64,000 nucleotides of DNA from an uncultured delta proteobacterium (GCA_963752595.1 CAVVYZ010000020.1:96001-160000); one strand, 5' to 3'. Positions 18,958-37,851 are shown, counted from the first letter of the stretch. The notes: generated by a model not told the origin, from the letters alone. Numbers and translations are program-made.

Positions 18958-19019
18958 TTCGAACGACAAAGCTCACCAGCGCGGCTCTGTCTCGCGTCCG
19001 GTGGAGCGCTTCGTTAGGC
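18958..19019 (-). repeat. attC site
   Basis: + strand TTCGAAC...imperfect palindrome...GTTAGGC, 62 bp. Confidence 0.9.
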
Positions 19020-19283
19020 CCTTTTCTTCTCCACTAAGTATCCGGATACGTATTTGTGGACTATACTGGATATCAAAGTCTGGTAGGGTACACCTTCTTG
19101 AGCAGCAATTACTTGAACCCGATCTAAATCCTCTGATGACATTCGGATATTTATTCTCTTGTCTTTTTTAATCGTATTCCGTGCATACTCACTAAGTTTC
19201 TTAATCTCCTTTTGGGGATTCTTTACGGGTTTCCATTCATCCTGGTCATATGAATCTAAAAGTTTCTTTTCTTCGGTATTAAG
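19014..19283 (-). pseudogene. Start-less CopG/BrnA-like antitoxin remnant
   Basis: Manual translation LNTEEKKLLDSYDQDEWK...KDKRINIRMSSEDL...EGVPYQTLISSIVHKYVSG...*; no start codon. Confidence 0.75.
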
Positions 19284-19835
19284 TCACTTAAAAAAGTATG
19301 AAAAATTCAATCCAATTGTTTTAAAATCACTTTGTCGCCCACGGCTTGAGAAGTTGTATGTATAATTCGCTGTAAATCGCACCTCTTTATTTACCCAGAG
19401 ATGAACCCCGATTTCGGGATAGAATGTAGCCATCCAATCGTTTACTACCGTTCTATTTTCCCCAGATTCATCAACTAACCCATCACCGTCGTTGTCTATA
19501 TTATCTTCATCAGCCTTCTCTTCTGTTTCTGAATAACCATAAAATAATCCCATTCCTGCATATGGGGAAATGCGGTATGGAGTTGTTGCCCTAATCGCTA
19601 ACTTATAACCGCTGAGTACCTCTTCAACGTGTTGATGACCCAATAACATCATGCTTCCATAGAGCGAGAAAATATCACCATTATAAGCCTCTGCTCCTAC
19701 TTCTAAGCCTAACGCACGAGGATTCCTTGAGAGATCAGATGCTATAAACAGACATAATTTCTCAATCTCTGATCCCCATATAGGTGAATTGATAAGCAAG
19801 AAAACAAGAGTCGTTATCAACATAGATAATTTCAA
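19284..19835 (-). CDS. Secreted or outer-membrane beta-barrel-like protein (cassette)
   Basis: Signal peptide, amphipathic strands, C-terminal aromatic residues, acidic DNDGDGLVDE loop. Confidence 0.65.
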   Translation of the reverse strand: MKLSMLITTLVFLLINSPIWGSEIEKLCLFIASDLSRNPRALGLEVGAEAYNGDIFSLYGSMMLLGHQHVEEVLSGYKLAIRATTPYRISPYAGMGLFYGYSETEEKADEDNIDNDGDGLVDESGENRTVVNDWMATFYPEIGVHLWVNKEVRFTANYTYNFSSRGRQSDFKTIGLNFSYFFK

Positions 19836-19843
19836 AAAATACC

Positions 19844-19908
19844 TCCTAACGTGCGGGCATCAGCGGGGCGGGCGGCAGCCCGCGTCCGCCTGGATGCTAT
19901 AGTTATGT
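19844..19908 (-). repeat. attC site
   Basis: TCCTAAC...GTTATGT, 65 bp. Confidence 0.92.
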
Positions 19909-20406
19909 CTTTTTCTTAAAGGCTCTTTGTGTAGTGTGCTTAAGGCATTCACCCAAAACACCGGCCTCGTTGACAAAAGGTTTACGGAACCATTCCCATA
20001 TGGAGAATCGTATTTCGGTAACCAATCTATATTCACATTCAGTAATTATACCACTATCGTTAATGGTGAATGAATAAGAATAAGGCCCCAGTGTGCTGGA
20101 TGGTAGTAGCCCTAGGGTAAAAACAGAAAGAAGTAACGGCATGCCACATGAATATGGACCACCTATAGGGTTCAGTTTTAAATTCGGCGCATTAGGATTA
20201 TCTACAATTCTAAACTTTCCGGATTTTAAAAGTATTTTATACTCCTTTGGATATTGTTTAGCGTTAACAACGAAGACTTCATAATTATTTAGATCAAACC
20301 ATATGGTTTGCTTTGTATATTGGTGAGGATCTTGGTCAATATATTTAAGCGTGCTTGTGCAGCCCGAGATGAAAAAAATCAAGCCTGCAAGTAGATATGG
20401 TTTCAT
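19903..20406 (-). CDS. Putative lipoprotein (cassette)
   Basis: MKPYLLAGLIFFISGC lipobox; stop codon overlaps attC R''. Confidence 0.75.
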   Translation of the reverse strand: MKPYLLAGLIFFISGCTSTLKYIDQDPHQYTKQTIWFDLNNYEVFVVNAKQYPKEYKILLKSGKFRIVDNPNAPNLKLNPIGGPYSCGMPLLLSVFTLGLLPSSTLGPYSYSFTINDSGIITECEYRLVTEIRFSIWEWFRKPFVNEAGVLGECLKHTTQRAFKKKT

Positions 20407-20422
20407 AAGTTCTCCACATGGG

Positions 20423-20549
20423 ACATAATGGTTTGGCTCAGCGGCAGCGGCGAGGCACACAAGACTCCTTTGCCATTATCACTCACTTCTTGCAAGCCGA
20501 CGCTTCCCCTCGGCAGCGGAGCCACTGTCCGCTGGAGCCAGTGTTAGGC
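20423..20549 (-). repeat. Long attC site with mutated crossover (ATT instead of GTT)
   Basis: ACATAAT...TGGCTCAGCGG...CCGCTGGAGCCA...GTTAGGC, 127 bp. Confidence 0.8.
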
Positions 20550-20627
20550 GCACCGCTTATTATTTTGATTGTTTCCGAAGAAACCCATCTTTTTGCAGCA
20601 AAATGGGCTTTACCGGTAAGGCAAGAC

Positions 20628-20825
20628 TCAATCTCGAAGAAGTGCATTTACTAGAAGCCCGAAAGCCAAAGCAGACGCCCCAAGACAAAGACCTGCGCCA
20701 ATCCATTGGGCGTTGAAGAGTGCAAACACAGCGGCTAGCAATCCTGCAAACCCGGTAATCAATACAGCAATTACCACGATCCCAAGAAGGGTTTCAGACC
20801 GGTTAGATTTCTTTTCCATTTTCAA
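20628..20825 (-). CDS. Small two-TM membrane protein (cassette)
   Basis: 65-aa hydrophobic ORF between two attC sites. Confidence 0.65.
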   Translation of the reverse strand: MKMEKKSNRSETLLGIVVIAVLITGFAGLLAAVFALFNAQWIGAGLCLGASALAFGLLVNALLRD

Positions 20826-20875
20826 CTCCTTACCTTATCAAGCCGTGATTTTCAAGTGTCTTTCCAAGAGAGGTG

Positions 20876-20956
20876 CACCAACGTTTGAGCTAACCGGCAT
20901 GCAAAAGCAGAGCGTAGCGGCGCTTTTGCATGTCCGTGTTGAGCTATTTGTTAAGC
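20876..20956 (-). repeat. attC site
   Basis: CACCAAC...CATGCAAAAGC/GCTTTTGCATG...GTTAAGC, 81 bp. Confidence 0.88.
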
Positions 20957-21730
20957 GCAGTCAAACTTGACCATGATGTGGTTTGGAAGATCAGACTCCT
21001 TTCTTCCGACCATCGCGTAATAGAACAACGGACGTCCATCAATGGAGATGCGGTGTCTGTATCGTTCCAAATGATGAACCTCCAACACATCGCTTAGTAG
21101 CATCCACTTGACCAAGCTGGAAAAGCCAGAAGTATCGCTCTCAAGCAGGAATGATTCCTTGATATTGAAGGCAACCCATCCTGCCGGCGCAATCAAATTA
21201 AATGCATTGGCAAAGGCCTTTGCTGGAATATCACCAAAACCGAGTGCTGCGACACAAGAAAGACAATTAATCTGCCACGCGACTAGTTCTTGCTGCATGG
21301 CAACGTCCAGATCACAAAAGTCGCAGACATAATACGCATCGTATATACCCGGCCTGTCACGCTCGCAGGCGATATACGCTTCTTTGCAGATGTCAGCGCC
21401 AATAACGCGGGCTACGCCCACAGTTTGCAGTTGCTCTCCAAACATACCGTTTCCGGCTCCGAGATCGAGCACGCGCAACTCTGTCATTTCAGCATTGTTA
21501 TCTCTCATAACCTTGCTCAAGATATCGCCGACTTTTTTGGGAGAACTACACTTGAGGCGCTGATAAAAAAGCTGCTCGTATAAATCGGAACGCTTGTAAA
21601 TTTCGCCATATTCATGAAAGCGGAGCCTAATTTCCTGTCCGTTTTCGGTGAGGTAGAAAAATGCCTCATCTTGGTCGAGCTGATGAGGTTCCGTAACAGG
21701 GAGCTTGATGTTATATTGCTGATGCTTCAT
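20951..21730 (-). CDS. Class I SAM-dependent methyltransferase (cassette)
   Basis: LRVLDLGAGNGMFGE motif; stop codon in attC. Confidence 0.85.
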   Translation of the reverse strand: MKHQQYNIKLPVTEPHQLDQDEAFFYLTENGQEIRLRFHEYGEIYKRSDLYEQLFYQRLKCSSPKKVGDILSKVMRDNNAEMTELRVLDLGAGNGMFGEQLQTVGVARVIGADICKEAYIACERDRPGIYDAYYVCDFCDLDVAMQQELVAWQINCLSCVAALGFGDIPAKAFANAFNLIAPAGWVAFNIKESFLLESDTSGFSSLVKWMLLSDVLEVHHLERYRHRISIDGRPLFYYAMVGRKESDLPNHIMVKFDCA

Positions 21731-21750
21731 ATTACCTCCATTGAAAAGAA

Positions 21751-21809
21751 GCCTAACGACATGGGTCAGCGGCGCGCGACAGCGCGTCCGCTGGAGCCGA
21801 TTGTTCGGT
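21751..21809 (-). repeat. attC site
   Basis: GCCTAAC...GTTCGGT, 59 bp. Confidence 0.92.
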
Positions 21810-21818
21810 TCAGGTCAT

Positions 21819-22879
21819 TCATCTTTTCATATTCTTCTTTGCTGTCTTAATGAAGCGTCCGAATGCCCTGTCCTTTTTACGTTTGTCCAAGTACGACATC
21901 TCATAGTGCTCTGACTCTTTCCTGAGTTTCAAATAACTGGAATAGCGCTCTTCACTCAACTCGCCGTTTGTAATTGCAGTAAGAACTGCGCAGTCTGATT
22001 CCTGAGTATGGCTGCAATCGGCATAGCGACAAGCCATGGAAAGCTCAATAATATCTTCAAACCCTTTGTTTACCCCTTCACTGGCGCCCAGAAGGCCTAA
22101 TTCTCTCATTCCAGGTGTATCAATGAACATAACGCCTTTATCAAGAACAATGAGTTGCCGACGCGCTGTTGTGTGTGTGCCTTCTCCTGTTCCACTGACA
22201 GCTTTAGTATCAAGATCATCCCGTCCAATCAGATGATTGATCAGTGTAGTCTTGCCGACTCCGGATGACCCAAGCAGGCAATATGTTCGACCCGGTATTA
22301 ATACCTGGTGGAATTCGTCAAATCCGGAGCCGGTTATGTTACTGAGTGCAATAACCCTGGTCGTGATGCCGGCCTGTCTGATAGCCGCAAGCTTCTGTTG
22401 CAGCTCATCGTGGGAGATCAAGTCCGTTTTGGCAAGAATGACAATCGGCTCAACATGTCCGTCGGCTGCCATTACTAAATACCGATTCAGTCTCGGTAGA
22501 TTAAAGTCAAAGTGACATGACTGGACAATGAAAGCGATATCAATGTTGGCTGCAATCATCTGGTAGTCCACTTCTACGCCGGCACGCTTTCGGCGTAAAA
22601 ACGTCCTTCGTGGAAAGACCCCATGGATGATTGCCAGGTGTCATCATTGTGATACTGCACGGTGACCCAATCGCCGACACATGGCAGCTCGACCGATGAC
22701 TCAACATGGAAATAGAACTTCCCCGCAAGTTCAGCAGGAATCTCTCTGAGTTCATTCCTGATAATGTAGGAATTGCGATCAACTGCCGACACGCGTGCAA
22801 TGCCTTGATCCTCGTGGCGGATGTCATCGACATGTGCTTCAAACCAGTGGTCAAAACCTAGATCACTCAATTTCATCAT
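21819..22879 (-). CDS. rsgA: RsgA-family GTPase (cassette; frameshift near 22580-22640)
   Basis: OB-fold PCVGDWV, AANID, LLGSSGVGKTTL, HTT, IDTPGMRE, CRYADCSH..E..C Zn finger. Confidence 0.88.
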
Positions 22880-22887
22880 AACTTGTC

Positions 22888-22944
22888 ACCGAACGTGCGG
22901 ATCACCGGCGGCTGAAAGCCGTCCGGTGGATGCCATTGTTGGGC
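22888..22944 (-). repeat. attC site
   Basis: ACCGAAC...GTTGGGC, 57 bp. Confidence 0.92.
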
Positions 22945-23244
22945 TTATTCGATAACTGGTATCCCACGATAACTATGCCAGATTCTTAGGACTTGGATTG
23001 TTTTAAGTGAGTTATCTATAAAGTAGATGATTCGATAAGGCTTTAGAATTGCTTCTCGAATTGAATCTTCACCTTTTTCAGGCACAACTCGATTTGAGAA
23101 GGGAAATTCAGATGCAAGTTCAATATGGTAGATAATCCGATCAGCAAGTTTTGCAGCTGCATCAGGATTATCAAGAGCGATGTACTGAACTATTTCTTTT
23201 AAATCCTCGTATGCAGATTCAGCCCATTTTATTGTGAAAGCCAT
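22945..23244 (-). CDS. RelE/ParE-family toxin (cassette)
   Basis: WAESAYEDLKEIVQYIALDNPDAA...PYRIIY...LRIWH. Confidence 0.9.
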   Translation of the reverse strand: MAFTIKWAESAYEDLKEIVQYIALDNPDAAAKLADRIIYHIELASEFPFSNRVVPEKGEDSIREAILKPYRIIYFIDNSLKTIQVLRIWHSYRGIPVIE

Positions 23245-23414
23245 TTTTTAAGACTTTCTTTTACCTCTTTATGTGGAACGATTTTACCTTCTTTGATGTC
23301 TGCGAGGCCCTTATCAATAGCGGCAAGAAAGTGAATCCGCTCTTCAATATCATTCCAAGTGGCTGAATCTGGGAGTTCCTGAATGGTTTTTATTGCGATT
23401 TCTTTGCTATTCAT
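23229..23414 (-). CDS. Putative antitoxin (cassette)
   Basis: 61 aa, IDKGLADIKEGKIVPHKEV; overlaps toxin start. Confidence 0.8.
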   Translation of the reverse strand: MNSKEIAIKTIQELPDSATWNDIEERIHFLAAIDKGLADIKEGKIVPHKEVKESLKKWLSQ

Positions 23415-23464
23415 ATCACTTATATACTCCTTTGAAACGATTCAGACAAGTTGCATTATCTGAG

Positions 23465-23521
23465 GCCCGACGTGCTGATCACCGGCGGCTGTAAGCCGTC
23501 CGGTGCATTGGCTGGTTGGGT
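23465..23521 (-). repeat. attC site with mutated crossover (GTC instead of GTT)
   Basis: GCCCGAC...GTTGGGT, 57 bp. Confidence 0.85.
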
Positions 23522-23638
23522 TGTGGATGGGTACAGAATTTCGCGCTCTATTTAAACCGGCACAGATTCTTCAACCCTAAAGCAGATTCATGTCCTGCAA
23601 TGAAAAACTTAGCCCAACAACCACTGACAGGCGAGCCT

Positions 23639-24541
23639 TCAACGAAAAAACCTCACCGGAAGATTTCCCCAGCCATCGGCCTTGAGAAACTCCAGCGCCG
23701 CACTCACCACCTCTACCGGCTTTTCTTCGTGTACCAGTAGGCGGGCACCCGGAATCTCCAGCAGACGAGCATCTGGAAACTGCTTGACCATCTTGCGCGC
23801 CAGGTCGACGGGAAACGTCGGATCGTCTGCGCCCCAGATCAGTTGCACCGGCATCGTCAGCCTCATATGCGCTTGCTCCAGCACGTCTACCGGCGCCCAC
23901 TGCGCGCCGAGCAGATAGCGTCGCACGCCCTCCATCCGCTGCGGTGAACGCCGTAGCGGTTCGATAATGTAGTCGTGAAAATCGCCTTCGATCAGGCGGA
24001 TATCGGTAAAGCATCCGCCGAACCCCATGGCCGACTGCAGAAACAGTGGCCAGCGCAGCAACACATTGAACACCGCCAGAATCCCTGGCACGTGCATCAG
24101 GAACTGGTAGAGAGGAATCCAAGGCGGACGATGCCCGGGCATCTCGGTGTTGATGAGAATCAGCTTGTCGATACGCGATACATCCTCAAGCGCGAGGAAG
24201 CGGGCGAAAGTGCCGCCGGTGTCCTGTGCCATTACGCTGTAACGCTCTAGACCCAGGCTATTGACCAGCCGCTTCAGCGTCTGCCCTTGGCCCGGAAAGC
24301 TGAAGTCGGTCGCATCCGTCCACTCACTTTCGCCCATACCGGGGATGTCCGGTACGTAGCATGTGTAGTGCATCGACAGCTCAGGAAGCAGCTTGCGCCA
24401 GGTGAAGCCGGAGAGCGGAAACCCGTGCACCAGTAGCAAAGGTGAACCCTTGCCGTATCGGCGACAGGGGAGCCGTTCGTTGCCTGTGTCCACCGTCTGC
24501 ACCGGCGTGTCAAAGTAGAACCGAGTAGTCGCTTCTGTCAT
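23639..24541 (-). CDS. Alpha/beta hydrolase (epoxide hydrolase/dehalogenase-like; cassette)
   Basis: LLLVHGFP, AQDTGG nucleophile elbow, LIWGADDP, HEEKP. Confidence 0.9.
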   Translation of the reverse strand: MTEATTRFYFDTPVQTVDTGNERLPCRRYGKGSPLLLVHGFPLSGFTWRKLLPELSMHYTCYVPDIPGMGESEWTDATDFSFPGQGQTLKRLVNSLGLERYSVMAQDTGGTFARFLALEDVSRIDKLILINTEMPGHRPPWIPLYQFLMHVPGILAVFNVLLRWPLFLQSAMGFGGCFTDIRLIEGDFHDYIIEPLRRSPQRMEGVRRYLLGAQWAPVDVLEQAHMRLTMPVQLIWGADDPTFPVDLARKMVKQFPDARLLEIPGARLLVHEEKPVEVVSAALEFLKADGWGNLPVRFFR

Positions 24542-24754
24542 AATAATTAATCAGCCACCGATGATTACTGACACAATTGATGCTACCAATGACACGATTT
24601 CCATATGTTCCCCTCTAACTGCCCAACGTGTAGATCAGCGGCGCGGGCGGCAGCCCGCGTCCGTCTGCATGCGTTTGATACTATGTAAGGCCTCCTCGAA
24701 TGGGTGGTATATTTGCTGGACCAACACCAAAAACCAACCAAGGAGGAGGCTTAA

Positions 24755-25798
24755 ATGAGATTCTACACCAAAGAGCACAAATTTTATTGTGGAATCGATC
24801 TGCACACCAAAAAAATGTATGTGTGCATACTGGGAAGCACAGGGGATATCATGGTTCACCGGAACATGAATACAGATGCAGGCGCTTTTCTTGAGCTCAT
24901 TGCTCCCTTTCGCGAGGACATCGTGGTAGCTGCAGAGTGCATGTTCACCTGGTACTGGGTAGCTGATCTGTGCGCCAAAGAGGGAATTCCTTTTATCCTG
25001 GGCCATGCTCTCTATATGAAAGCAATCCATGGCGGAAAGAGCAAAAACGACAAGATCGATTCCCATAAAATTGCTGTGCTCCTTAAGGGCGGCATGCTGC
25101 CCCAGGCATATGTCTATCCGGCGAAGATGCGCTCTACCAGGGATCTCCTCAGGAGGAGAAATCATCTGGTGAGGAAGAGAGCCGAGCTCTTTGCCCATAT
25201 TCAGAACACAAAAAGCCAGTACAACCTGCCGGAACATCTCGGCCGCATTGCCAAGCCGAAGAACAGAGAGGGCGTTGTAGAGCGATTCGACGATAGAAGT
25301 GTGAGGAAGAACATGGAAGTGGACCTTGCCATGATCGAAGCCTATGACCGCATCATCCTCCCGCTAGAGCGGGAGATTATAAAGATCGCCAATGGACATG
25401 ATCTCCTTTCCTATACTCTTCTGCAAACCATCCCAGGAGTCGGCAGAATCCTCGCTCTTGTAATGCTCTATGAAATAGAGACCATTAATCGATTCGCAAC
25501 TGTCCAGGACTTTGCCTCATATGCCCGTCTGGTTAAATGTAAAAAAGAATCCAACGGTAAAACCTATGGAACCAGCGGAAAGAAGATCGGCAATGCTCAC
25601 TTAAAGTGGGCTTTCAGTGAAGCATCGGTACTCTTCATCAAGGGCAATGAACCAGCGAAGAAATACCTCGACCGGCTTACCCAGAAACACGGGAAAGGAA
25701 AAGCACTCTCGATCCTTGCCCACAAGCTCGGAAGAGCTGCCTATTACCTGCTGAAAAACAAAGTGGCTTTCGATACTGAGAAGTTCTTGAGCCACTAA
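24755..25798 (+). CDS. IS110-family transposase/recombinase
   Basis: RuvC-like DEDD (GIDLH, AAEC, KNDKIDS), TIPGVG, ESNGK serine loop, GNAHLKWAF. Confidence 0.96.
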   Translation: MRFYTKEHKFYCGIDLHTKKMYVCILGSTGDIMVHRNMNTDAGAFLELIAPFREDIVVAAECMFTWYWVADLCAKEGIPFILGHALYMKAIHGGKSKNDKIDSHKIAVLLKGGMLPQAYVYPAKMRSTRDLLRRRNHLVRKRAELFAHIQNTKSQYNLPEHLGRIAKPKNREGVVERFDDRSVRKNMEVDLAMIEAYDRIILPLEREIIKIANGHDLLSYTLLQTIPGVGRILALVMLYEIETINRFATVQDFASYARLVKCKKESNGKTYGTSGKKIGNAHLKWAFSEASVLFIKGNEPAKKYLDRLTQKHGKGKALSILAHKLGRAAYYLLKNKVAFDTEKFLSH

Positions 25799-25804
25799 AG
25801 AATT

Positions 25805-26345
25805 GGAGGAGACGGATCAGTCCGACGCCTAACTGGAGCCATATGGGGATGGAGCACGCATTCACCTCGATCAGAAAGGGAATAGAATATCCTTGCATGA
25901 TAAGAGTGCTTGAAAAAGGATGTGCCCGATTGGTACCCCGCAGCCTGTTGCGCTTGATTGGAGATCCGTCTCGCTCCTTCGATACATGCTCTTGTTGGTC
26001 AGGTTCTGCCCCTTACCCGAACCCGCGCCTAACTGGGAAGAACAGCACCCCGGCGTTTGACTGGGACGGCACGAGGGAGAACGGCATTGTTTCTAGGTCG
26101 CATTCTTCTAAGAAGAGAGGGCAACCACTCGCTTGCATCTCTCTTCGGGAAGAATGATGAAGAGAACCTCAATAAGTGTTTGGTGCAGGATTTGATTTCG
26201 CTTGCACCCGTTGATGAAACCAAAGCCAGAGCAGCCAACATCGAGCAATATGGTTGAACGGAAAAAAGAATCGTCTTACCGTTCAAGAGTGTCTTGCCAA
26301 TAGACACACAATGCAGACGAAAAAGAAGAACAACTTTTTCGTCTT
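25805..26345 (+). ncRNA. Predicted bridge/seek RNA with three guide loops (copy 1)
   Basis: Nested stems enclose pairs of 9-nt segments that match the attC target (two loops) or the IS junction (one loop); see findings. Confidence 0.75.
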
Positions 26346-26405
26346 GGGGTAGTTTTATCTATTGACAAGAGGAGGCCTTATAAGTGTTCGCCTGCTTTTC
26401 ACCGG

Positions 26406-26669
26406 CTATTCGTAATGTGTCCACATGCGGATGACTTTCACTGTTTTGATGTCATCAAGTATTTGGTAAACCAGCCGGTGTTGGATGTTCATTCTTCTGG
26501 AGCATGCTCCAGATAGATCTCCTAGAAGTTTTTCATATGGCGGGGGAGTCTGATAGGGATCTTCTTTGAGGATTTCGAGCAGATGCTCTGCCTGAGGTTT
26601 TAAACCGGAATGTGCGATCTTCTTGGCGTCTTTCTTTGCCTGCTTGGTAAAGGCTACCCTCCAAGTCAC
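26406..26669 (-). CDS. yoeB: Txe/YoeB toxin (cassette)
   Basis: PPYEKLLGDLSGACSRRMNIQHRLVY...RMWTHYE. Confidence 0.93.
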   Translation of the reverse strand: MTWRVAFTKQAKKDAKKIAHSGLKPQAEHLLEILKEDPYQTPPPYEKLLGDLSGACSRRMNIQHRLVYQILDDIKTVKVIRMWTHYE

Positions 26670-26908
26670 CAGTCAACATCCTCATCGCACTCCTCTACGG
26701 GAGTTCCAAGCCCTTCCCGGATAGATTCACGCATGCCAGGTATTGATGTGAGGTACAAAGTTTCCTGGATTGCTCGCCAATCATCTTCAGAAATAAGAAC
26801 TGCCGAGCTCCTTTTCCCAACGATCTGAATCGGCTCATGGGATTCTTTCACCTCATCCACAAGGCTATATAAACGCTTTCTTGCTTCCGTTGCTGTTAGG
26901 GTAGGCAT
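26666..26908 (-). CDS. yefM: Phd/YefM antitoxin (cassette)
   Basis: TATEARKRLYSLVDEV...AVLISEDDWRAIQETLYL. Confidence 0.93.
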   Translation of the reverse strand: MPTLTATEARKRLYSLVDEVKESHEPIQIVGKRSSAVLISEDDWRAIQETLYLTSIPGMRESIREGLGTPVEECDEDVDW

Positions 26909-26926
26909 ATTATTAAATCTCCTTTA

Positions 26927-26965
26927 CGTACGATATATCGTACGCCATAAGGCAATCAATGTCAA
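26927..26965 (-). promoter_or_regulatory. yefM-yoeB promoter with overlapping palindromic operator
   Basis: Minus strand TTGACA-17-TACGAT; perfect 18-bp palindrome CGTACGATATATCGTACG at 26927-26944. Confidence 0.8.
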
Positions 26966-26975
26966 GTCATTTGAA

Positions 26976-27020
26976 GGCGAACGTAGGCATCAGCGGCGGC
27001 TGAAAGCCGTCCGCTGGATG
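26976..27020 (-). repeat. attC site truncated by IS4-family element
   Basis: GGCGAAC...CAGCGGCGGCTGAAAGCCGTCCGCTGGATG, then IS sequence; R'' GTT box missing. Confidence 0.85.
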
Positions 27021-28304
27021 CATTGGGCTTTATAACTTGTCAATATAACATTCAAAGAATGGCCGTTCTCGATACATTTGTTCAAATTTTCTTGGTTCAC
27101 CACGAACCGCGGGTACAGTAGTTGGTCTCACTTTGTATCGATGCTGTTCTGCCGGTTGGCGCAGGCAAAGAGTATCCGGGAGATTTGCGATGGGCTTGCC
27201 TGTTGCGTGGGAAAACTCAAACATCCGGGGCTTCAGGAATCTCCGAAGAAGTCGACGCTCTCCTATGCGAATGCCCACAGGCCCTGGGAGATGTACCGTG
27301 ATCTTTTCTATCTTCTGCTGGAAAGATACCGTGGAAGCATGAAAGGCAAGAAGAGGAAATTCCGTTTCAAGAACAAGCTGCTTTCTTTGGACAGCACGAC
27401 CATATCCCTGTGCTTGTCCATATTCCCCTGGGCAGAGTTCAGGAGGACAAAAGGTGCGGTCAAGCTGCATCTTCTGCTGGATCATGACGGATATCTTCCC
27501 ACCTATGCCTATATCTCAAACGGGAAAAAGCACGATGTCACCATTGCCAGAAAGGTTCCTCTTACACCGGTCTCCATCGTCACCATGGACAAGGGGTATA
27601 ATGATTACCGCCTGTTTGCTTCCTGGACTGAATCCGGGATCTATTTCGTCACCAGGATGAAAGACAATGCCGTCTACAATGTGGTGGAGGAACGCAGTGT
27701 TCCTCGGCATAAGAATATCCTCTCAGACCAGCTCATCATCTTCACGGGAACAGGAGCCGAAGAGAAATGTCCCCATGTCCTGCGCCGGGTGGTTGTATGG
27801 GACGAAGAAAACCAAAGACAGATTATCCTGCTGACCAACCACTTCTCTTTTTCTGCACGTACCATATCCGCCATCTACAAGGACCGTTGGGAAATCGAGA
27901 TCTTCTTCAAGACGCTCAAGCAGAACCTCAAAGTGAAAACCTTTGTCGGCACCAGCGAAAACGCCCTGTATATCCGGATTTGGACAGCACTTATCGCCAT
28001 GCTCATGATCAAGTACCTGCAGCACATCTCCAGATTATCCTGGTCCCTTTCCAACCTCGTCACCTTGCTTCGCCGGAATCTCTTTACTTACCGTGATCTG
28101 CATGCCTGGCTCGATAACCCCTTTGAAACACCACCGGCTGAACCCGAGTTTGTCCAAGAAGTGCTGCCTTTCCCCGGTCTTGGACAGCATGTGTGCAATG
28201 TAGATAAAATGAGAACCGGGTCATGAAAAATCGCTTGTCCCAAACCTAACGCATTGATTTGTTTTGACCTGAATCAGAAATCAGGATTATTTTGGACAGC
28301 AGTG
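27021..28304 (+). mobile_element. IS4-family element, internally deleted
   Basis: Ends CATTG... and ...GGACAGCAGTG; no target duplication seen; left boundary somewhat uncertain. Confidence 0.75.
27078..28226 (+). pseudogene. IS4-family (DUF4372-type) DDE transposase, N-terminus apparently missing
   Basis: SWSHFVSMLF, LDSTTISL, MDKGY, YKDRWEIEIFFKTLKQ (YREK motif). Confidence 0.85.
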
Positions 28305-28324
28305 GAATTGCATATTAAATTAAT

Positions 28325-28384
28325 GCCCAACGGCGGGCATCACCGGCGCGCGTCAGCGCGTCCGTGTGCATGCCATGGTTGGAT
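28325..28384 (-). repeat. attC site
   Basis: GCCCAAC...GTTGGAT, 60 bp. Confidence 0.92.
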
Positions 28385-28388
28385 GCCT

Positions 28389-28703
28389 TTAGAAACCAGT
28401 AAATAAGAAATCAAGAGCTGAAATGATTACATGACGCTGATCTTTAAGGGTCCCGACCTTTTCGCCTAAAACACGGACAGAAACACCTGCCATCTCAGCT
28501 GTGGACATGTATACAATCTTTCGTTTAATTTTAAACTGTGGATTGAGATGGTCTATTGGTCTTCCTAAGGCTGATGCGCTTATAAGGGGCGCAACAACTC
28601 GTGTTGCCAGAGAACTAAGGAGATCGGCTTGAAGATCGACAAGGTAGGGAATATCTTTTTTTGTACGCTCATTTAAATTTTCATACACATCAAATTGTGC
28701 CAT
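28389..28703 (-). CDS. ccdB: CcdB toxin (cassette)
   Basis: MAQFDVYEN...PYLVDLQADLLSSLATRVVAPL...ALDFLFTGF. Confidence 0.93.
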   Translation of the reverse strand: MAQFDVYENLNERTKKDIPYLVDLQADLLSSLATRVVAPLISASALGRPIDHLNPQFKIKRKIVYMSTAEMAGVSVRVLGEKVGTLKDQRHVIISALDFLFTGF

Positions 28704-28951
28704 TAAAAGTTCCTCAATTCATCACTGAATACTCCTGAGACTTCAATTCGCTGATTATAGGCTTCAATAGCCTCTTTATTATTTTCTCTCCATTTGCAAC
28801 GCTTTTCCTCCAGGAGCATTTCTATAAGGCGCTGCTCCAATGCCCTTGATAAATTGATGCTGTTTTTCTTCGCTTGCTGGAGGAGATCGCTATTGATACT
28901 CAGGTTAGTGGATTTTTTAGGTGCTTTGGGATTAAAGATGTTGATTTGCAT
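28703..28951 (-). CDS. ccdA: CcdA antitoxin (cassette)
   Basis: KKSTNLSINSDLL...INLSRALE...WRENNKEAIEAYN...FSDELRNF. Confidence 0.93.
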   Translation of the reverse strand: MQINIFNPKAPKKSTNLSINSDLLQQAKKNSINLSRALEQRLIEMLLEEKRCKWRENNKEAIEAYNQRIEVSGVFSDELRNF

Positions 28952-28962
28952 GCTTGCCTCCT

Positions 28963-29000
28963 TATGCGCATATAATAGCCACATTAATGCGCATTATCAA
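28963..29000 (-). promoter_or_regulatory. ccdAB promoter with two ATGCGCAT palindromes
   Basis: Minus strand TTGATA-17-TATTAT; palindromes TATGCGCATA (28963-28972) and TAATGCGCATTA (28985-28996). Confidence 0.72.
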
Positions 29001-29029
29001 GCGATTCTTTAGTAATGATATTTGTGATC

Positions 29030-29089
29030 ATCCAACGCCTGAATTAAGCCGCGCCGCGAAGCGGCGTCGGCTTGAATGAGTTGTTAGGC
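29030..29089 (-). repeat. attC site of aadA/aadB-like type
   Basis: Minus strand GCCTAACAACTCATTCAAGCCGACGCCGCTTCGCGGCGCGGCTTAATTCAGGCGTTGGAT, 60 bp. Confidence 0.95.
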
Positions 29090-29135
29090 ATGATTGGATT
29101 TTCCCCACTTTCTGAGTCGCCCGGTAATCCCCTCA

Positions 29136-29882
29136 TCACCGCGTCATCAGCGCGAACACGCCCCAGCCCAGGTATTCACGCGTGTAAGCGGCGTAGCGCT
29201 CGGGTTCCGAGGTTAGTTTGGCTCGAACATCTTTCGCGAACTCGTCGTCGGGATTGGCTTCAAGCCATCGGCGCATGGTGAGCCATTTGGCCGCCTCGTA
29301 TCTGTCCCAGCCGTCTTGGTCAGCCAGAACCATTTCAACGACGTCGTAGCCGAGGTGGCCGAAAGACGCGAGAAGTTCTGGAAGCATGAGAAAGTCGGAG
29401 ATTGAGTCGGCAAGACACCCCTTGGCAACATCTTCCGTCGGCGGTAACTGCCGCCAGTAGGGCTCGCCGATGAGGATGATCCCTCCGGGGCGGAGGCTCT
29501 GCGCCAGAAGTTCGATAGTTCCGCTGACGCCCCCGCCGATCCACGTGGCGCCGAGACAGGCTGCCACACCGGCCTTCTCGTCAGAGACGAAGCCGGCAGC
29601 ATCGCCATGGATGAACTTGACTTGATCGGCGACACCGAGTTCTTCAGCGCGGAGTTTCGCTTGCTCGGTGAACAACTGGCTCATGTCGATGCCGGTGCCG
29701 ATGACTCCGTAATCGCGTGCCCAGGTGCACAGCATCTCCCCCGAACCGCTGCCGAGGTCGAGCACTCGGGTCCCCCTTTCCAGACGCAGCGCCGCGCCGA
29801 GAGTGGCGAGCTTTTCGGGTGTGAACGGGTCATGGATGCGGTGAGCACTTTCGGTGATGTTGAAGATCCGTGGAATATCCAA
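29136..29882 (-). CDS. YjhP-like SAM-dependent methyltransferase (cassette)
   Basis: MDIPRIFNITESAHRIH...VLDLGSGSGEMLCTWARD...YTREYLGWGVFAL, 248 aa. Confidence 0.9.
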   Translation of the reverse strand: MDIPRIFNITESAHRIHDPFTPEKLATLGAALRLERGTRVLDLGSGSGEMLCTWARDYGVIGTGIDMSQLFTEQAKLRAEELGVADQVKFIHGDAAGFVSDEKAGVAACLGATWIGGGVSGTIELLAQSLRPGGIILIGEPYWRQLPPTEDVAKGCLADSISDFLMLPELLASFGHLGYDVVEMVLADQDGWDRYEAAKWLTMRRWLEANPDDEFAKDVRAKLTSEPERYAAYTREYLGWGVFALMTR

Positions 29883-30051
29883 TGTAGTAAACCTCCTTAT
29901 GGGTGTGAATAGATTCGGTCACTGCCTAACGCCAGGCATCAGCGGCGGCTTTAGCCGTCCGCTGGAGGCCTTTGATACTATGTAAGGCCTCCTCGAATGG
30001 GTGGTATATTTGCTGGACCAACACCAAAAACCAACCAAGGAGGAGGCTTAA

Positions 30052-31095
30052 ATGAGATTCTACACCAAAGAGCACAAATTTTATTGTGGAATCGATCTGC
30101 ACACCAAAAAAATGTATGTGTGCATACTGGGAAGCACAGGGGATATCATGGTTCACCGGAACATGAATACAGATGCAGGCGCTTTTCTTGAGCTCATTGC
30201 TCCCTTTCGCGAGGACATCGTGGTAGCTGCAGAGTGCATGTTCACCTGGTACTGGGTAGCTGATCTGTGCGCCAAAGAGGGAATTCCTTTTATCCTGGGC
30301 CATGCTCTCTATATGAAAGCAATCCATGGCGGAAAGAGCAAAAACGACAAGATCGATTCCCATAAAATTGCTGTGCTCCTTAAGGGCGGCATGCTGCCCC
30401 AGGCATATGTCTATCCGGCGAAGATGCGCTCTACCAGGGATCTCCTCAGGAGGAGAAATCATCTGGTGAGGAAGAGAGCCGAGCTCTTTGCCCATATTCA
30501 GAACACAAAAAGCCAGTACAACCTGCCGGAACATCTCGGCCGCATTGCCAAGCCGAAGAACAGAGAGGGCGTTGTAGAGCGATTCGACGATAGAAGTGTG
30601 AGGAAGAACATGGAAGTGGACCTTGCCATGATCGAAGCCTATGACCGCATCATCCTCCCGCTAGAGCGGGAGATTATAAAGATCGCCAATGGACATGATC
30701 TCCTTTCCTATACTCTTCTGCAAACCATCCCAGGAGTCGGCAGAATCCTCGCTCTTGTAATGCTCTATGAAATAGAGACCATTAATCGATTCGCAACTGT
30801 CCAGGACTTTGCCTCATATGCCCGTCTGGTTAAATGTAAAAAAGAATCCAACGGTAAAACCTATGGAACCAGCGGAAAGAAGATCGGCAATGCTCACTTA
30901 AAGTGGGCTTTCAGTGAAGCATCGGTACTCTTCATCAAGGGCAATGAACCAGCGAAGAAATACCTCGACCGGCTTACCCAGAAACACGGGAAAGGAAAAG
31001 CACTCTCGATCCTTGCCCACAAGCTCGGAAGAGCTGCCTATTACCTGCTGAAAAACAAAGTGGCTTTCGATACTGAGAAGTTCTTGAGCCACTAA
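30052..31095 (+). CDS. IS110-family transposase/recombinase
   Basis: Protein identical to 24755-25798. Confidence 0.96.
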   Translation: MRFYTKEHKFYCGIDLHTKKMYVCILGSTGDIMVHRNMNTDAGAFLELIAPFREDIVVAAECMFTWYWVADLCAKEGIPFILGHALYMKAIHGGKSKNDKIDSHKIAVLLKGGMLPQAYVYPAKMRSTRDLLRRRNHLVRKRAELFAHIQNTKSQYNLPEHLGRIAKPKNREGVVERFDDRSVRKNMEVDLAMIEAYDRIILPLEREIIKIANGHDLLSYTLLQTIPGVGRILALVMLYEIETINRFATVQDFASYARLVKCKKESNGKTYGTSGKKIGNAHLKWAFSEASVLFIKGNEPAKKYLDRLTQKHGKGKALSILAHKLGRAAYYLLKNKVAFDTEKFLSH

Positions 31096-31101
31096 AGAAT
31101 T

Positions 31102-31642
31102 GGAGGAGACGGATCAGTCCGACGCCTAACTGGAGCCATATGGGGATGGAGCACGCATTCACCTCGATCAGAAAGGGAATAGAATATCCTTGCATGATAA
31201 GAGTGCTTGAAAAAGGATGTGCCCGATTGGTACCCCGCAGCCTGTTGCGCTTGATTGGAGATCCGTCTCGCTCCTTCGATACATGCTCTTGTTGGTCAGG
31301 TTCTGCCCCTTACCCGAACCCGCGCCTAACTGGGAAGAACAGCACCCCGGCGTTTGACTGGGACGGCACGAGGGAGAACGGCATTGTTTCTAGGTCGCAT
31401 TCTTCTAAGAAGAGAGGGCAACCACTCGCTTGCATCTCTCTTCGGGAAGAATGATGAAGAGAACCTCAATAAGTGTTTGGTGCAGGATTTGATTTCGCTT
31501 GCACCCGTTGATGAAACCAAAGCCAGAGCAGCCAACATCGAGCAATATGGTTGAACGGAAAAAAGAATCGTCTTACCGTTCGAGAGTGTCTTGCCAATAG
31601 ACACACAATGCAGACGAAAAAGAAGAACAACTTTTTCGTCTT
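31102..31642 (+). ncRNA. Predicted three-loop bridge/seek RNA (copy 2)
   Basis: Same as 25805-26345. Confidence 0.75.
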
Positions 31643-31727
31643 GGGGTAGTTTTATCTATTGACAAGAGGAGGCCTTATAAGTGTTATGCTTTTTTGTAAG
31701 GCTCAGATATTAGATAATGAAAGGCTT

Positions 31728-32444
31728 TCAATGCTTTTGAATAGATGGTCTAGATGTGCTTATATCAACATTTGAAAGAACTTTATTAACCATATCATCA
31801 ATTTCAGGATATTTACTCACACGTTTATAATCAGAACGGTATTGTTTTACTCTCTTCAGGACTATGTTGGTGAGCTCTCTATCTTTTTCAGATCCCTTTA
31901 CGGGATAAAAGAATTTCATTACCTTACTATCAAGGTCCCCCTCTACCCATTCAATTGCCTTTTCAACCTCTCCTGATCGTAAGTATCTAAGTGTATGAAG
32001 GCTTACATTTATATTTCTAAGGTCCTCGTTTGTAGGGCCTAATGTATTGGCAAAAAAGAGGTATGCTCCAACCTTTAATCCAAATATTGCACCAAAGAAT
32101 CCTGAAGCAATGATCAATAAAACTATGTTCACTATTTTCAATATGGAATTCTTACCTGTGTTAACGTCAGTCTTATTTTTCAGACGGATGAGCTTCGTAT
32201 CAATCACAAAATCAATAACAACAGAGAAAGCTATTACCCCAAATATTGCCAACCAGTTGCTTTTCAACAACACTATAATTAAACCAGCTGATAAGCCAAT
32301 TAGTAACGATGTAGCACCTAATAGGAAGGTATAATTTATTACTGATATATTACTACAAGACTTACACGAGTGTTCCCCATAGACACTTTTAAAGTATACC
32401 TTCCAGTAAGGAATTGAATCTTCATTGCAGTTTGGACATCTCAT
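31728..32444 (-). CDS. Zn-ribbon membrane protein of unknown function (cassette)
   Basis: CPNC...CKSC followed by three TM segments; AT-rich. Confidence 0.75.
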   Translation of the reverse strand: MRCPNCNEDSIPYWKVYFKSVYGEHSCKSCSNISVINYTFLLGATSLLIGLSAGLIIVLLKSNWLAIFGVIAFSVVIDFVIDTKLIRLKNKTDVNTGKNSILKIVNIVLLIIASGFFGAIFGLKVGAYLFFANTLGPTNEDLRNINVSLHTLRYLRSGEVEKAIEWVEGDLDSKVMKFFYPVKGSEKDRELTNIVLKRVKQYRSDYKRVSKYPEIDDMVNKVLSNVDISTSRPSIQKH

Positions 32445-32466
32445 AAATTTTCCTTCCTATCTTTGA

Positions 32467-32523
32467 GCATAACGTGCCGATCACTGGCGGCTGAAAGCCG
32501 TCCGGTGGATTGGCGGGTTATGC
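32467..32523 (-). repeat. attC site
   Basis: GCATAAC...GTTATGC, 57 bp. Confidence 0.93.
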
Positions 32524-32559
32524 TGTGTTATAGCGTATTGAAATTGAATAATAAAAAAG

Positions 32560-33147
32560 TTAATCTCGATATAAAAAGAGTGCTACACGCCTGCATCTTA
32601 CCTGTATTCCATTGATCTCGCTCCGTATTCTCACTCCCAGAGTTATTTCTTCATCAGGGAATTGGCTGAAAATATTGATTGTATCAACCCAAACAACTGT
32701 TGTGCTATTTGTTTGAACAGTACTTTGTGAGATAGGAACATCATTAGTAAGATCATAAAGTTCAACAAAACAATTATTGGCTCCGTTAGCAGATTCAATT
32801 GCCGCTGAAAAAACTATTCTATTAACGCCAATATAATTCTCAATATTGAATTTAGTTAGTAAACATGCATTTGGAGACATGACCCATGATGTATTAGTAG
32901 CAACCAGGAAATCTTGAAAGTCGTATTCAAATCTAATCTGCTTATCGTATACCCCAACACCAGGGAGTCCTTGAGGTCCTTGTGCACCTGTTGACCCCTG
33001 TTCTCCCTGCTGGCCTTGGGATCCTTGTTCTCCTTGTGGGCCTTGATCTCCATCAGAACCACCAACGCAACCATTTAGCATAAGTAATAAGAAAATTATA
33101 AAAAACATTATAGATGTAGACTTATAAGACATAAAAGAATTGCACAT
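32560..33147 (-). CDS. Collagen-like repeat lipoprotein (cassette)
   Basis: LMLNGC lipobox followed by about 11 Gly-X-Y triplets (GDQGPQGEQ...GLPG). Confidence 0.8.
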   Translation of the reverse strand: MCNSFMSYKSTSIMFFIIFLLLMLNGCVGGSDGDQGPQGEQGSQGQQGEQGSTGAQGPQGLPGVGVYDKQIRFEYDFQDFLVATNTSWVMSPNACLLTKFNIENYIGVNRIVFSAAIESANGANNCFVELYDLTNDVPISQSTVQTNSTTVVWVDTINIFSQFPDEEITLGVRIRSEINGIQVRCRRVALFLYRD

Positions 33148-33178
33148 AGTATTTTGAGCTCCTCTCTTTATTATTAAG

Positions 33179-33238
33179 GCATAACGATGGCATCAGCGGC
33201 GCGGCTCCGCCGCGTCCGCCTGCATGCGATGGTTATGC
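33179..33238 (-). repeat. attC site
   Basis: GCATAAC...GTTATGC, 60 bp. Confidence 0.93.
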
Positions 33239-33253
33239 GATCCTCGATTCATA

Positions 33254-33970
33254 TTAATAAGGACAACTTTCAATAATAAGATGAACCCATTTATAGTATG
33301 GTTCATCATCAGTTATTCTAATTTTGTAGGAGTTTTTCAACCAACGCTGAAGAAAATCTTCTGCTGACATTGGTGCATCCGGAGATGATTTGAACATATC
33401 AGGATCTATACTCTCCATTTGCTTCTTTGTTGGACGTAAATAGATTACTCCCTCATAAGGGGGGTATAAAATATTTTGTATATCTGGGAGGTCATTCTTA
33501 GTTTTTTCACATGAAAACCATTCAAGCTCAGATGGAAACATATTCAGGAATGGATCAGTGGCAGAAATAAATAGGTCAACAACATCAACAAAATCCTCAG
33601 CTTCAGCTCTTTCTGGAACAATATATTCGTGCTCGACAAGATTCCTCATGCTATTCATTCTGCGCAATATTTGGGGAGTTGTTAGACTACACTTCTTGCA
33701 GAACTCAAGCTTTTCAGGAAAATGTTGTCTTTCTTTTTTGGGTAATGATTTGATTCCGAAAGCATTTACAAGAAGCTCAACTTGATAGTGCAAGGCACGT
33801 TTAGCATTTGTTAAAGCATTTATATTCGAACGAGCATCATTGCTTGCTTCCAAATCAGTCTGTGAAAATTGAAGGTATCCACGGGGATCGATTTCCTGGG
33901 ATGATTCTATACATTCAAATCCACTTACGTGCGGTTTATTAAATTTATAATGTTCGGGTAGAATTATCAT
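33254..33970 (-). CDS. Hypothetical protein, HEPN-like (cassette)
   Basis: NALTNAKRALH helix and RNLVEH (RxxxxH) motif. Confidence 0.65.
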   Translation of the reverse strand: MIILPEHYKFNKPHVSGFECIESSQEIDPRGYLQFSQTDLEASNDARSNINALTNAKRALHYQVELLVNAFGIKSLPKKERQHFPEKLEFCKKCSLTTPQILRRMNSMRNLVEHEYIVPERAEAEDFVDVVDLFISATDPFLNMFPSELEWFSCEKTKNDLPDIQNILYPPYEGVIYLRPTKKQMESIDPDMFKSSPDAPMSAEDFLQRWLKNSYKIRITDDEPYYKWVHLIIESCPY

Positions 33971-33982
33971 CAGAACTTATCC

Positions 33983-34046
33983 GCATAACGGCCAGCATCA
34001 GCGGCGCGGGCGGCAGCCCGCGTCCGTCTGCATGCTGTGGTTAGAC
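33983..34046 (-). repeat. attC site
   Basis: GCATAAC...GTTAGAC, 64 bp. Confidence 0.93.
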
Positions 34047-34796
34047 AGTTCTATTTTCACTAAGCAATCCAAGAAAATCGTATGAGAAGGTTTGTATATT
34101 TTTAAGAATTTGATCTGCATATTTGTCTATAGCCATCGAGCCAATTACTGGAGGGTTTATCTTCACGCATGTTAAACTATTCCCTTGCTCCATGAAGTGA
34201 AGCTGAAACATTAGTTGATTCATCCCGATCTCAGGATGAATGAGTTGATCTCGTGCAAAAATTGCTTGGTCAAGCCACAATGCCTTGTGTTCCATAATCA
34301 ATGCTTTGATTCTAGCGGCAGTTTCATTTCTCTTTTTCGAGGCATTATTTGTAAGAGCGTTGAGGACTTTACCACCATAAATATTCTGTGAACGATGGAA
34401 TCCATCAATAGATGCAGCAACGACTTTTTCACTTGAGAGTAGTTGAACGAGAAGATCCAAGAGGGATTTAACTCCAGAAAAGAATGCTTCAATACGAAGG
34501 TGCATGTCGGGAAGTTGGCCATATATATCTAATTCTTGAAGATCAAACTTCCGCGTTTGCCATTGCTGATAAATTGTCTCAATGTGTTTTTGGCAAAGGT
34601 GTTCTGCATCACCGCAAATGTTCTTTATCTGCCCAGCACAATGATTCAATACCGAAAACTCGGTCCAGCATGATTGAACGATACCTTTACTTACACCTGA
34701 CCATAGATTGGGATTGAAAATTTTAGCACCAGCAACAGCCGACTTATCTGCACAGATAACCGGTATGCGGTTGTTTTGTTTTTTATTTTTCGTCAT
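34041..34796 (-). CDS. Hypothetical protein, HEPN-like (Cthe_2314-like; cassette)
   Basis: EAFFSGVKSLLDLLVQLL helix and RDQLIH (RxxxxH) motif. Confidence 0.65.
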   Translation of the reverse strand: MTKNKKQNNRIPVICADKSAVAGAKIFNPNLWSGVSKGIVQSCWTEFSVLNHCAGQIKNICGDAEHLCQKHIETIYQQWQTRKFDLQELDIYGQLPDMHLRIEAFFSGVKSLLDLLVQLLSSEKVVAASIDGFHRSQNIYGGKVLNALTNNASKKRNETAARIKALIMEHKALWLDQAIFARDQLIHPEIGMNQLMFQLHFMEQGNSLTCVKINPPVIGSMAIDKYADQILKNIQTFSYDFLGLLSENRTV

Positions 34797-34816
34797 ATTT
34801 TATAATTATTTAGGAT

Positions 34817-34881
34817 GTCTAACGCCCAGCATCACCGGCGCGGGCGGCACGCCCGCGTCCGTGTGCATGCTGTTGTTAGCT
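34817..34881 (-). repeat. attC site of first cassette
   Basis: GTCTAAC...GTTAGCT, 65 bp. Confidence 0.93.
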
Positions 34882-36817: not shown

Positions 36818-36876
36818 CACCATTAATATTTTTCGGAATACTTGAATGCATTTGTTTTGTTGGGAGGTCCTATCCT

Positions 36877-37851
36877 ATGAAGCCGAAGAATACCCAGGAG
36901 CAAAAGCTCTTTGACGTTGTTTGCGATATCCTCCGCAGAAAGCATTATTCTCTCAAGACAGAGAAATCGTATATATCCTGGATGAGAAGATTCATCAGTT
37001 ATCATAAAATGCGCCATCCCAGGGATATGGGCAAACACGAAATCGAATCGTTCCTCACACATCCGGCTGTTGATCATAAGGTCGCTTCATCAACGCAGAA
37101 TCAGGCATTCAATGCCATACTGTTTCTCTACCGTGATGTGCTGGAAATCAACATCTCGGATGAACTCAATGCCGTGCGGGCAAAAAAGCAAGCCCGCATA
37201 CCCGTAGTTTTGAGCCATGAGGAAGCCTTAAAGGTGATCGACTCCATTACAGGTGTGCATCAGCTCATGGCAAAGCTTCTCTATGGCTGCGGCCTTCGAC
37301 TTACGGAATGCCTCAGATTGAGGGTCAAAGACATCGATTTTGAAATGAACTGCATCGTTATCTTTGATGGCAAAGGGAAAAAAGACCGGGTTGTCATGCT
37401 TCCCAAGAAAGTTGCATTCATCCTTAAAGAGCAGATACAGCATGTACATTCGATCCATAGATATGATCTTGCAAGGGGTTATGGCGCGGTCCATCTTCCA
37501 TTCGCCTTGGAGAAGAAATACCCGAATTCACCAAAACAGCTTGGTTGGCAGTACGTCTTCCCTTCTGATGAAGTATCCCGGGACCCGAGATCCGGAAAAA
37601 CCATGCGGCACCACGTGAGCCCCACGACCCTGCAGAGGGCGGTTAAAAAAGCAGTTGCAATAGCAGGTGTTTACAAGCATGTGGGGTGCCATACCTTCAG
37701 GCACAGTTTCGCCACCCGGCTGCTTGAGAATGGGTACGACATAAGAACCGTACAAGAGCTCCTCGGTCATAAGGACATTAAGACAACCATGATCTACACC
37801 CACGTCATGAACAAAGGGGCTATGGCCGTGAAGAGTCCGCTGGATGTGTAG
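36877..37851 (+). CDS. intI: Integron integrase
   Basis: [17 protein letters not shown], integron-specific insert [10 protein letters not shown]...[20 protein letters not shown]...TTMIYTHV; GGGAGG RBS. Confidence 0.97.

Follow-up and report, generated by a model that had tools for sequence, protein, structure and literature searches.

An ISGsu4-like IS110 element at integron attC sites, probably steered by the first of three conserved loops in its predicted guide RNA

Two copies of an insertion sequence (IS) interrupt the integron cassette array of an uncultured delta proteobacterium in the window analyzed here, a stretch of 64,000 nucleotides (nt) (GCA_963752595.1, CAVVYZ010000020.1:96001-160000; genome G000). 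The element is ISGsu4-like and belongs to the IS110 superfamily; it sits between the TG and the TT of the attC R'' box and is probably steered there by the first loop (loop 1) of a three-loop RNA predicted from its 3' non-coding end. The initial annotation had named the second loop (loop 2) as the guide, and the better score of loop 2 at the two sites in the window is probably a one-base coincidence. Sequence comparison established the element's ends and core, three conserved predicted loops, the tracking of both flanks by loop 1 and of the element ends by loop 3, and a loose matching of the left arm.

Both IS copies are 1,709 bp long and differ only by an A/G substitution at 26285. Copy 1 (24678..26386, + strand, including one TG core) and copy 2 (29975..31683, + strand), whose inner features lie at the positions of copy 1 plus 5,297, are inserted near R'' and antisense to the cassettes. 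The TG core is common to both boundaries of each; the left flanks are GCGTTTG (copy 1) and GCCTTTG (copy 2), and the right flanks are TTCGCC and TTATGC, respectively. As initially annotated, the two copies enter at a single point, between the TG and the TT of the R'' box, with the G being the start of the R'' complement. A contig from run X2 spans site 1 without the IS (joint 24675 to 26385, 1709 skipped, no extra letters), which established the ends of the IS and the empty form of its target. We found no circle joint and no other junction of the exact element in the low-depth contigs examined. The part of attC site 1 to the left of the IS (24621..24677, - strand) contains the R' and L boxes and ends in the TG core (24676-24677), and the severed R'' box lies at 26386..26392 (- strand). 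The corresponding parts of attC site 2 are at 29924..29974 and 31683..31689 (both - strand).

Genome G000 contains two further copies, on contigs C2 and C1. The C2 copy is a full-length, frameshifted sister (88%) that occupies another attC. The C1 copy (G000:C1:291895-293401) is truncated, with ∼95% identity in the transposase, 99-100% in the RNA loops, and unchanged guides; a TG followed by TT is still visible at its left junction. Since both its ends are gone and no attC surrounds it, this copy is uninformative on targeting.

The transposase gene (24755..25798, + strand) encodes a 347-residue ISGsu4-like DEDD protein that carries the DEDD_Tnp_IS110 and Transposase_20 domains (PF01548 and PF02371) and scores above the cut-off of NF033542. 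The domains, the scarless insertion at a short shared TG core, and guides that covary with target (loop 1, by permutation) and donor (loop 3, by inspection) place the element in the IS110 superfamily. The coding region is followed by a 3' non-coding end of 591 nt, and 12-bp subterminal inverted repeats are found on the left (24686..24697, + strand) and on the right (26369..26380, + strand).

The non-coding end is predicted to form three loops, all on the + strand. Loop 1 (25804..25972) is the predicted working target-binding loop, with a right-arm guide at 25825-25833 and the left-arm guide GCGCTTG at 25950-25956. Loop 2 (26003..26083) is a conserved look-alike of the target loop, with a right-arm segment at 26025-26033 and the left arm GCGTTTG at 26053-26059. 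In each of these two loops, the 5' segment is complementary to GTTAG and the 3' segment ends in TTG. Loop 3 (26085..26178) is the predicted donor-binding loop: its 5' segment (26085-26093) is approximately the complement of the left end of the element, its 3' segment (26172-26178) is identical to the right end, and by inspection it changes along with the element's own ends in relatives. The closing stems of loops 1 and 2 showed covariation in 11 of 12 pairs (26 sequences) and in 7 of 10 pairs (42 sequences), respectively. We compared the layout in the 80 best genome matches (58-89% protein identity), and the three modules were present in all of those with an intact 3' end. Both target-type loops also occur in plasmid relatives from Vibrio, Alteromonas, and Pseudoalteromonas at 54-57%. 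An Rfam scan of positions 17000-38000 returned no match at E<=1.

Some relatives showed particular forms of the two target-type loops. In six loci, mostly from Acidobacteriota (L035, L037, L047, L050, L052, and L056), loop 2 departs from the attC consensus and is near-invariant among members, while loop 1 is variable. In an Alteromonas plasmid relative (L108:2247-2520), loops 1 and 2 are near-identical across ∼16 bases on their 3' sides and the flank fits neither well; the likeness hints at a duplication or conversion between the loops.

To relate loops to landing sites, we assembled 63 insertions for which the left flank and the two target-type loops were available. Genome loci contributed 57 (of 80), metagenome loci 3 (of 13), and G000 itself three copies; loci without flank or RNA were left out. 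The 63 insertions represent 52 guide sets, and 60 of them come from relatives. At positions -7 to -3, loop 1 matched its flank at 2.96 of 5 positions on average, compared with 1.79 after free shuffling (z 8.9), 1.97 with a GC-matched null (z 7.4), and 2.39 and 2.57 with within-clade nulls (z 4.7 and 3.3). The raw match of loop 2 was 2.18 of 5, with z values of 3.8, 4.0, 3.0, and 2.1 in the same four nulls. Loop 1 was the higher scorer in 39 insertions and loop 2 in 11, with 13 ties, and where the loops differ the flank agreed 76 times with loop 1, 24 times with loop 2, and 47 times with neither. In a mixture model, the log-likelihood was -416.5 with loop 1 only and -458.9 with loop 2 only, and the best share of loop 2 was 0 (a drop of 2.3 at 0.2, giving an upper bound of ∼0.2). 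Scoring the flanks of other copies and relatives against both loops, the check that the initial annotation had put forward, thus turned against its choice of guide: loop 1 covaries with the flank and loop 2 adds nothing beyond it.

The right side of the target gave the same picture. All 54 right flanks in our table begin with GTT, the table leaving out two ends that could not be placed reliably and four with a short or no flank. Right-arm covariation (55 insertions) was found for loop 1 (p=0.0003) and not for loop 2 (p=0.81), and the right arm fits GTTRRRY in 56 of 64 loop 1 sequences and in 19 of 64 loop 2 sequences. In an all-against-all scan, the only in-register diagonal was that of loop 1 against the left flank. 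The scan had no in-register signal for loop 2 as a reader of the donor ends or for self-pairing, and we rejected both roles; a role as reader of R' was also rejected, as the R' sites here have a CG core. Individual loci agree with the role of loop 1. L031 has a GG core at its two junctions, and the same change is present in the donor loop and loop 1 but absent from loop 2; L010 has an altered right arm in loop 1 with a flank altered to fit; and in L045 and L056 loop 1 matches 7/7, including unusual bases. Of the 10 closest sister insertions, 7 score higher with loop 1 and 3 are tied. At 17 loci where occupied sites were compared with empty TG-core neighbours, the occupied site scored higher with loop 1 in 13 (p=0.0025) and with loop 2 in 10 (p=0.053); these counts come from an approximate fold-based attC detector that missed 3 of the 15 window sites, gave false matches, and called attC at 23 of the 46 occupied sites of relatives.

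Among related genomes, neither 60 relatives nor 121 class members contained a near-identical copy with both flank and guides (for G015 and G032, only 50-nt ends were available), and viral contigs contained no relative of the element. Three loci (L081, L082, and L084) carry GCGCTTG, a flank of the loop 1 type, with the guides out of view, and we did not count them.

We then considered the ranking from which loop 2 had been chosen. The array (18958..34881, - strand) holds 15 intact attC sites, 13 empty and 2 occupied; a further site, at 26976, is degenerate, having lost its GTT box, and was excluded from scoring. As the initial annotation stated, the flanks of the copies match the GCGTTTG of loop 2 at 7/7 and 6/7, seven empty sites lack the TG core (they carry CG, AG, and, in five cases, GG), and the six empty TG sites match at 4, 4, 5, 5, 3, and 5 of 7, hence none above 5/7. 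The occupied pair is indeed the top pair for loop 2 (1/105 pairs with 15 sites, 1/28 with the 8 TG-core sites). However, the left-arm ranking is one of 12 scores tried. When a 4-nt right arm of loop 2 is added to the left arm, the copy 2 site ties with the empty site 34817 (2/28), and with the right arm alone both occupied sites have the lowest score (3/4). Loop 1 matches the occupied flanks at 6/7 and 5/7 (4/28 pairs), and the 7-mers of the two loops differ by a single base. As 5/7 is the commonest left-arm score of loop 1 in the family, its scores in the window are ordinary.

A hidden Markov model of the array sites detected a further 20 sites in the rest of the genome, one without a GTT box and one holding the C2 copy. 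These roughly 20 attC-like sites form small clusters off this integron, on contigs C2, C5, C9, C13, C16, and C26. With 34 sites, 14 of them TG, the occupied pair ranked 2/91 by loop 2 and 21/91 by loop 1. The in-genome ranking is therefore real and favours loop 2, yet it hangs on two events and one base. Its claimed value as independent support for loop 2 as the guide did not survive, since family covariation, the mixture fit, the right arms, and the occupied-versus-empty test all favour loop 1. More generally, a ranking based on two events can single out the wrong guide.

Several observations nevertheless weigh against loop 1 as the sole address. Every left-arm score in the genome ranks the occupied pair better by loop 2 than by loop 1, and C16 has two unoccupied TG sites with a 6/7 match to loop 1 and a TTAG right arm. 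The relatives are not independent of each other, and their guides were placed by motif search with hand corrections. Loop 2 showed no excess at flank positions departing from loop 1 (p 0.58-0.90, 63 insertions), by a statistic that is biased low where the loops are alike. Moreover, loop 2 is kept down to ∼55% protein identity, and it is closer to the loop 1 of its own element than to shuffled ones. In this genome it has a full attC-type right arm, common to just 19 of 64 relatives, and the likelihood ratio for loop 2 is 9.85 for copy 2 (1.31 for copy 1).

These points would fit a loop 2 that serves this lineage as an active second address and directed one or both insertions, a reading that we consider unlikely. 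The ranking of the occupied pair (p=0.036 among TG sites, 0.011-0.022 genome-wide) and the better loop-1 sites left unoccupied in the genome argue for it, as do the 11 of 63 insertions where loop 2 is the higher scorer. Loop 2 matches at 7/7 in L024 and L027, but loop 1 reaches 6/7 in both, and roughly half of the guide sets have a loop 1 mismatch at position -4; in L071 loop 2 matches at 6/7, compared with 4/7 for loop 1. On the other hand, the share of loop 2 across the family is estimated at 0 and at most ∼0.2, and loop 2 was never ahead among the 10 closest sisters. The identical loop-2 guide is present in L001, in another host, and therefore was not tuned to this array, and a 6/7 match to loop 2 on C26 (C26:49852) is unoccupied. 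In its fullest form, this reading would have an ISGsu4-like clade that reached attC independently with two separately encoded target loops, loop 2 having been reprogrammed here into a full second address that directed copy 2; we give this rather little credence. If true, one recombinase would have two natural addresses.

Alternatively, neither left-arm guide may matter much, any nearby attC with a TG core and a GTT box being accepted and the ranking being due to chance. Loop 1 matches at 5/7 or less in 42 of 63 insertions, the flank of the C2 sister copy matches both of its own loops at 5/7, and a half-match insertion of IS621 has been reported (10.64898/2026.08.31.748434). Yet the covariation of loop 1 outlasts stratification by GC and by clade, and occupied sites outscore their TG-core neighbours on loop 1, making this explanation quite improbable. 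Steering mainly by loop 1 thus remains our preferred reading. The comparative data agree with the broader proposal that guides in the 3' non-coding end direct the element to attC by base pairing and that occupancy follows guide match.

The left junction ends in TG in 59 of 63 insertions, compared with 22 TG and 23 GG among 55 nearby empty sites, so TG is strongly preferred. As an absolute filter, though, it did not hold: eight of the 63 insertions (L005, L031, L034, L038, L059, L065, L069, and L077) have GG at one or both junctions, and GG sites are therefore not immune.

By analogy with IS621 and ISEc11, as described in PMC11208160 and PMC11187229, the element would form a circle and then recombine, RNA guided, at the 2-nt TG core. 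The circle junction would create a promoter, with a TTGACA just upstream of the right repeat and 18 bases from a GATACT. Pairing of loop 1 with the two target strands would select the new site, and loop 3 would pair with the donor. The middle loop is conserved without a clear role in site choice. Tentatively, and with reservations, we suggest that loops 2 and 3 may together form a standard two-loop bridge that serves excision or second strand transfer and requires only core-adjacent bases, while loop 1 chooses the site. A possible model is the direct transfer of CazIS110-1, described with a target-loop-only RNA beside a full bridge RNA (10.1101/2025.10.25.684509); the split between loops 2/3 and loop 1 would be a fixed version of this cooperation. 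There, however, the short RNA is the same loop in truncated form, whereas here two different loops are encoded separately. The role of loop 2 bears on how bridge recombinases divide excision and insertion and on their capacity for two addresses.

As in the IS621 bridge RNA (PMC11208160, PMC13626964), the RNA predicted here has a target loop and a donor loop, and in each of them two guides flank a 2-nt core. The published IS621 RNA differs in having two loops rather than three, a position upstream of the gene, and the reverse guide order. Multi-loop donor structures are mentioned for IS1111 elements in PMC11208160.

The nearest named relatives in ISfinder are ISGsu4, the nearer one, and ISMahy12. 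The transposase is of the same lineage: against the ISGsu4 sequence printed in supplementary file 6 of PMC11187229, a hand count gave 48 identities in the first 73 residues. That supplement lists ISGsu4 under IS110 with 5 unique insertions, and its matrix gives ISGsu4 an identity of ∼15-23% to the IS1111 group and of 17.4, 17.1, and 17.7% to ISPst6, ISKpn4, and ISPa21. At E<=1e-100, the clade comprised 7,527 protein clusters among 8,000 scored. A literature search on the names ISGsu4 and ISMahy12 returned no paper on targeting. In the literature and bridge-RNA papers searched, where subscription literature was thinly covered, neither a second target loop nor targeting of attC by members of this clade was described; the RNA models of a preprint (10.64898/2026.10.21.760802) may include the RNA predicted here.

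The initial annotation had appealed to the IS1111-attC elements as an established targeting group; that group is a different lineage with a different cut point. There are clear likenesses. The IS1111-attC elements ISKpn4, ISPst6, ISPa21, and ISPa25 also insert near the R'' end of attC and antisense to the cassettes (PMC3001079), and the seekRNAs of the group, as described in PMC11187229, likewise lie downstream of the transposase gene, with the top-strand guide 5' of the bottom-strand guide, in elements with subterminal inverted repeats. The 12-bp repeats and the 591-nt non-coding end also agree with the 11- to 13-bp subterminal repeats and long 3' non-coding region of the IS1111 group. In contrast, the terminal extensions do not follow the 7 (or 6) + 3 bp of that group, and the circle junction would have 14 bases between the repeats (8 + 4 + the 2-nt core) rather than 9-10. 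The transposase falls outside the ISPa21/ISPst6/ISKpn4 clade, as judged via the 17-18% identity of ISGsu4. According to Table 1 of PMC13604230, ISKpn4, ISPst6, and ISPa25 cut 7 bases before the point, between G and TT, used here. The non-coding ends printed for the IS1111-attC group are far below 591 nt, and one target-matching pair is described. The element is thus ISGsu4-like and appears to work like IS1111-attC without being a member. Because ISGsu4 is only 17-18% identical to that group and the cuts are 7 bases apart, attC targeting likely arose independently; a large clade with a conserved predicted three-loop RNA targets attC at a base other than that of the known group.

We confirmed that insertion parts R'' from the remainder of attC and breaks the R''/R' pairing, the left end of the IS replacing the R'' box beside the hairpin. 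In the predicted fold, the outer stem was gone at site 2, and site 1 was ambiguous. An attC without R''/R' pairing should not be used by the integrase IntI. The block at occupied sites would hold for excision of single cassettes and not for co-excision with neighbours via intact sites. The cassettes affected by an interrupted attC are those to its right, and an IS-free allele of site 1 exists, as seen in the run X2 contig. Experimental evidence on the use of IS-interrupted attC by IntI is described as limited in PMC11616780.

A YoeB/ParE-type toxin-antitoxin cassette (26406-27030) lies between two disabled attC, the IS-interrupted site and site 26976. The latter adjoins an IS4-family element (27078-28226). 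Elsewhere in the genome, two attC (G000:C2:224225 and C16:14687) are cut within the R' box by a sequence starting with GTGTG, which we take to be the 5' end of a group II intron; the one on C2 is followed by an open frame of 465 residues, and this attC additionally holds the sister IS at R''.

The integron integrase gene intI lies at 36868..37851 (+ strand; TIGR02249, 457.8 bits, cut-off 265). Between intI and the first cassettes, at the expected place of attI and the cassette promoter, is a DDE transposase gene (35495-36619; IS5/IS1182-like, below cut-offs). One cassette gene is apparently split into two frames (22574-22879 and 21819-22571), and a contig from run X5 has one additional base at 22635. 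The methyltransferase cassette (29139-29882) showed a contig depth far above the rest of the array in runs X1, X2, X3, and X5, with many variants, so it is probably present in many other hosts.

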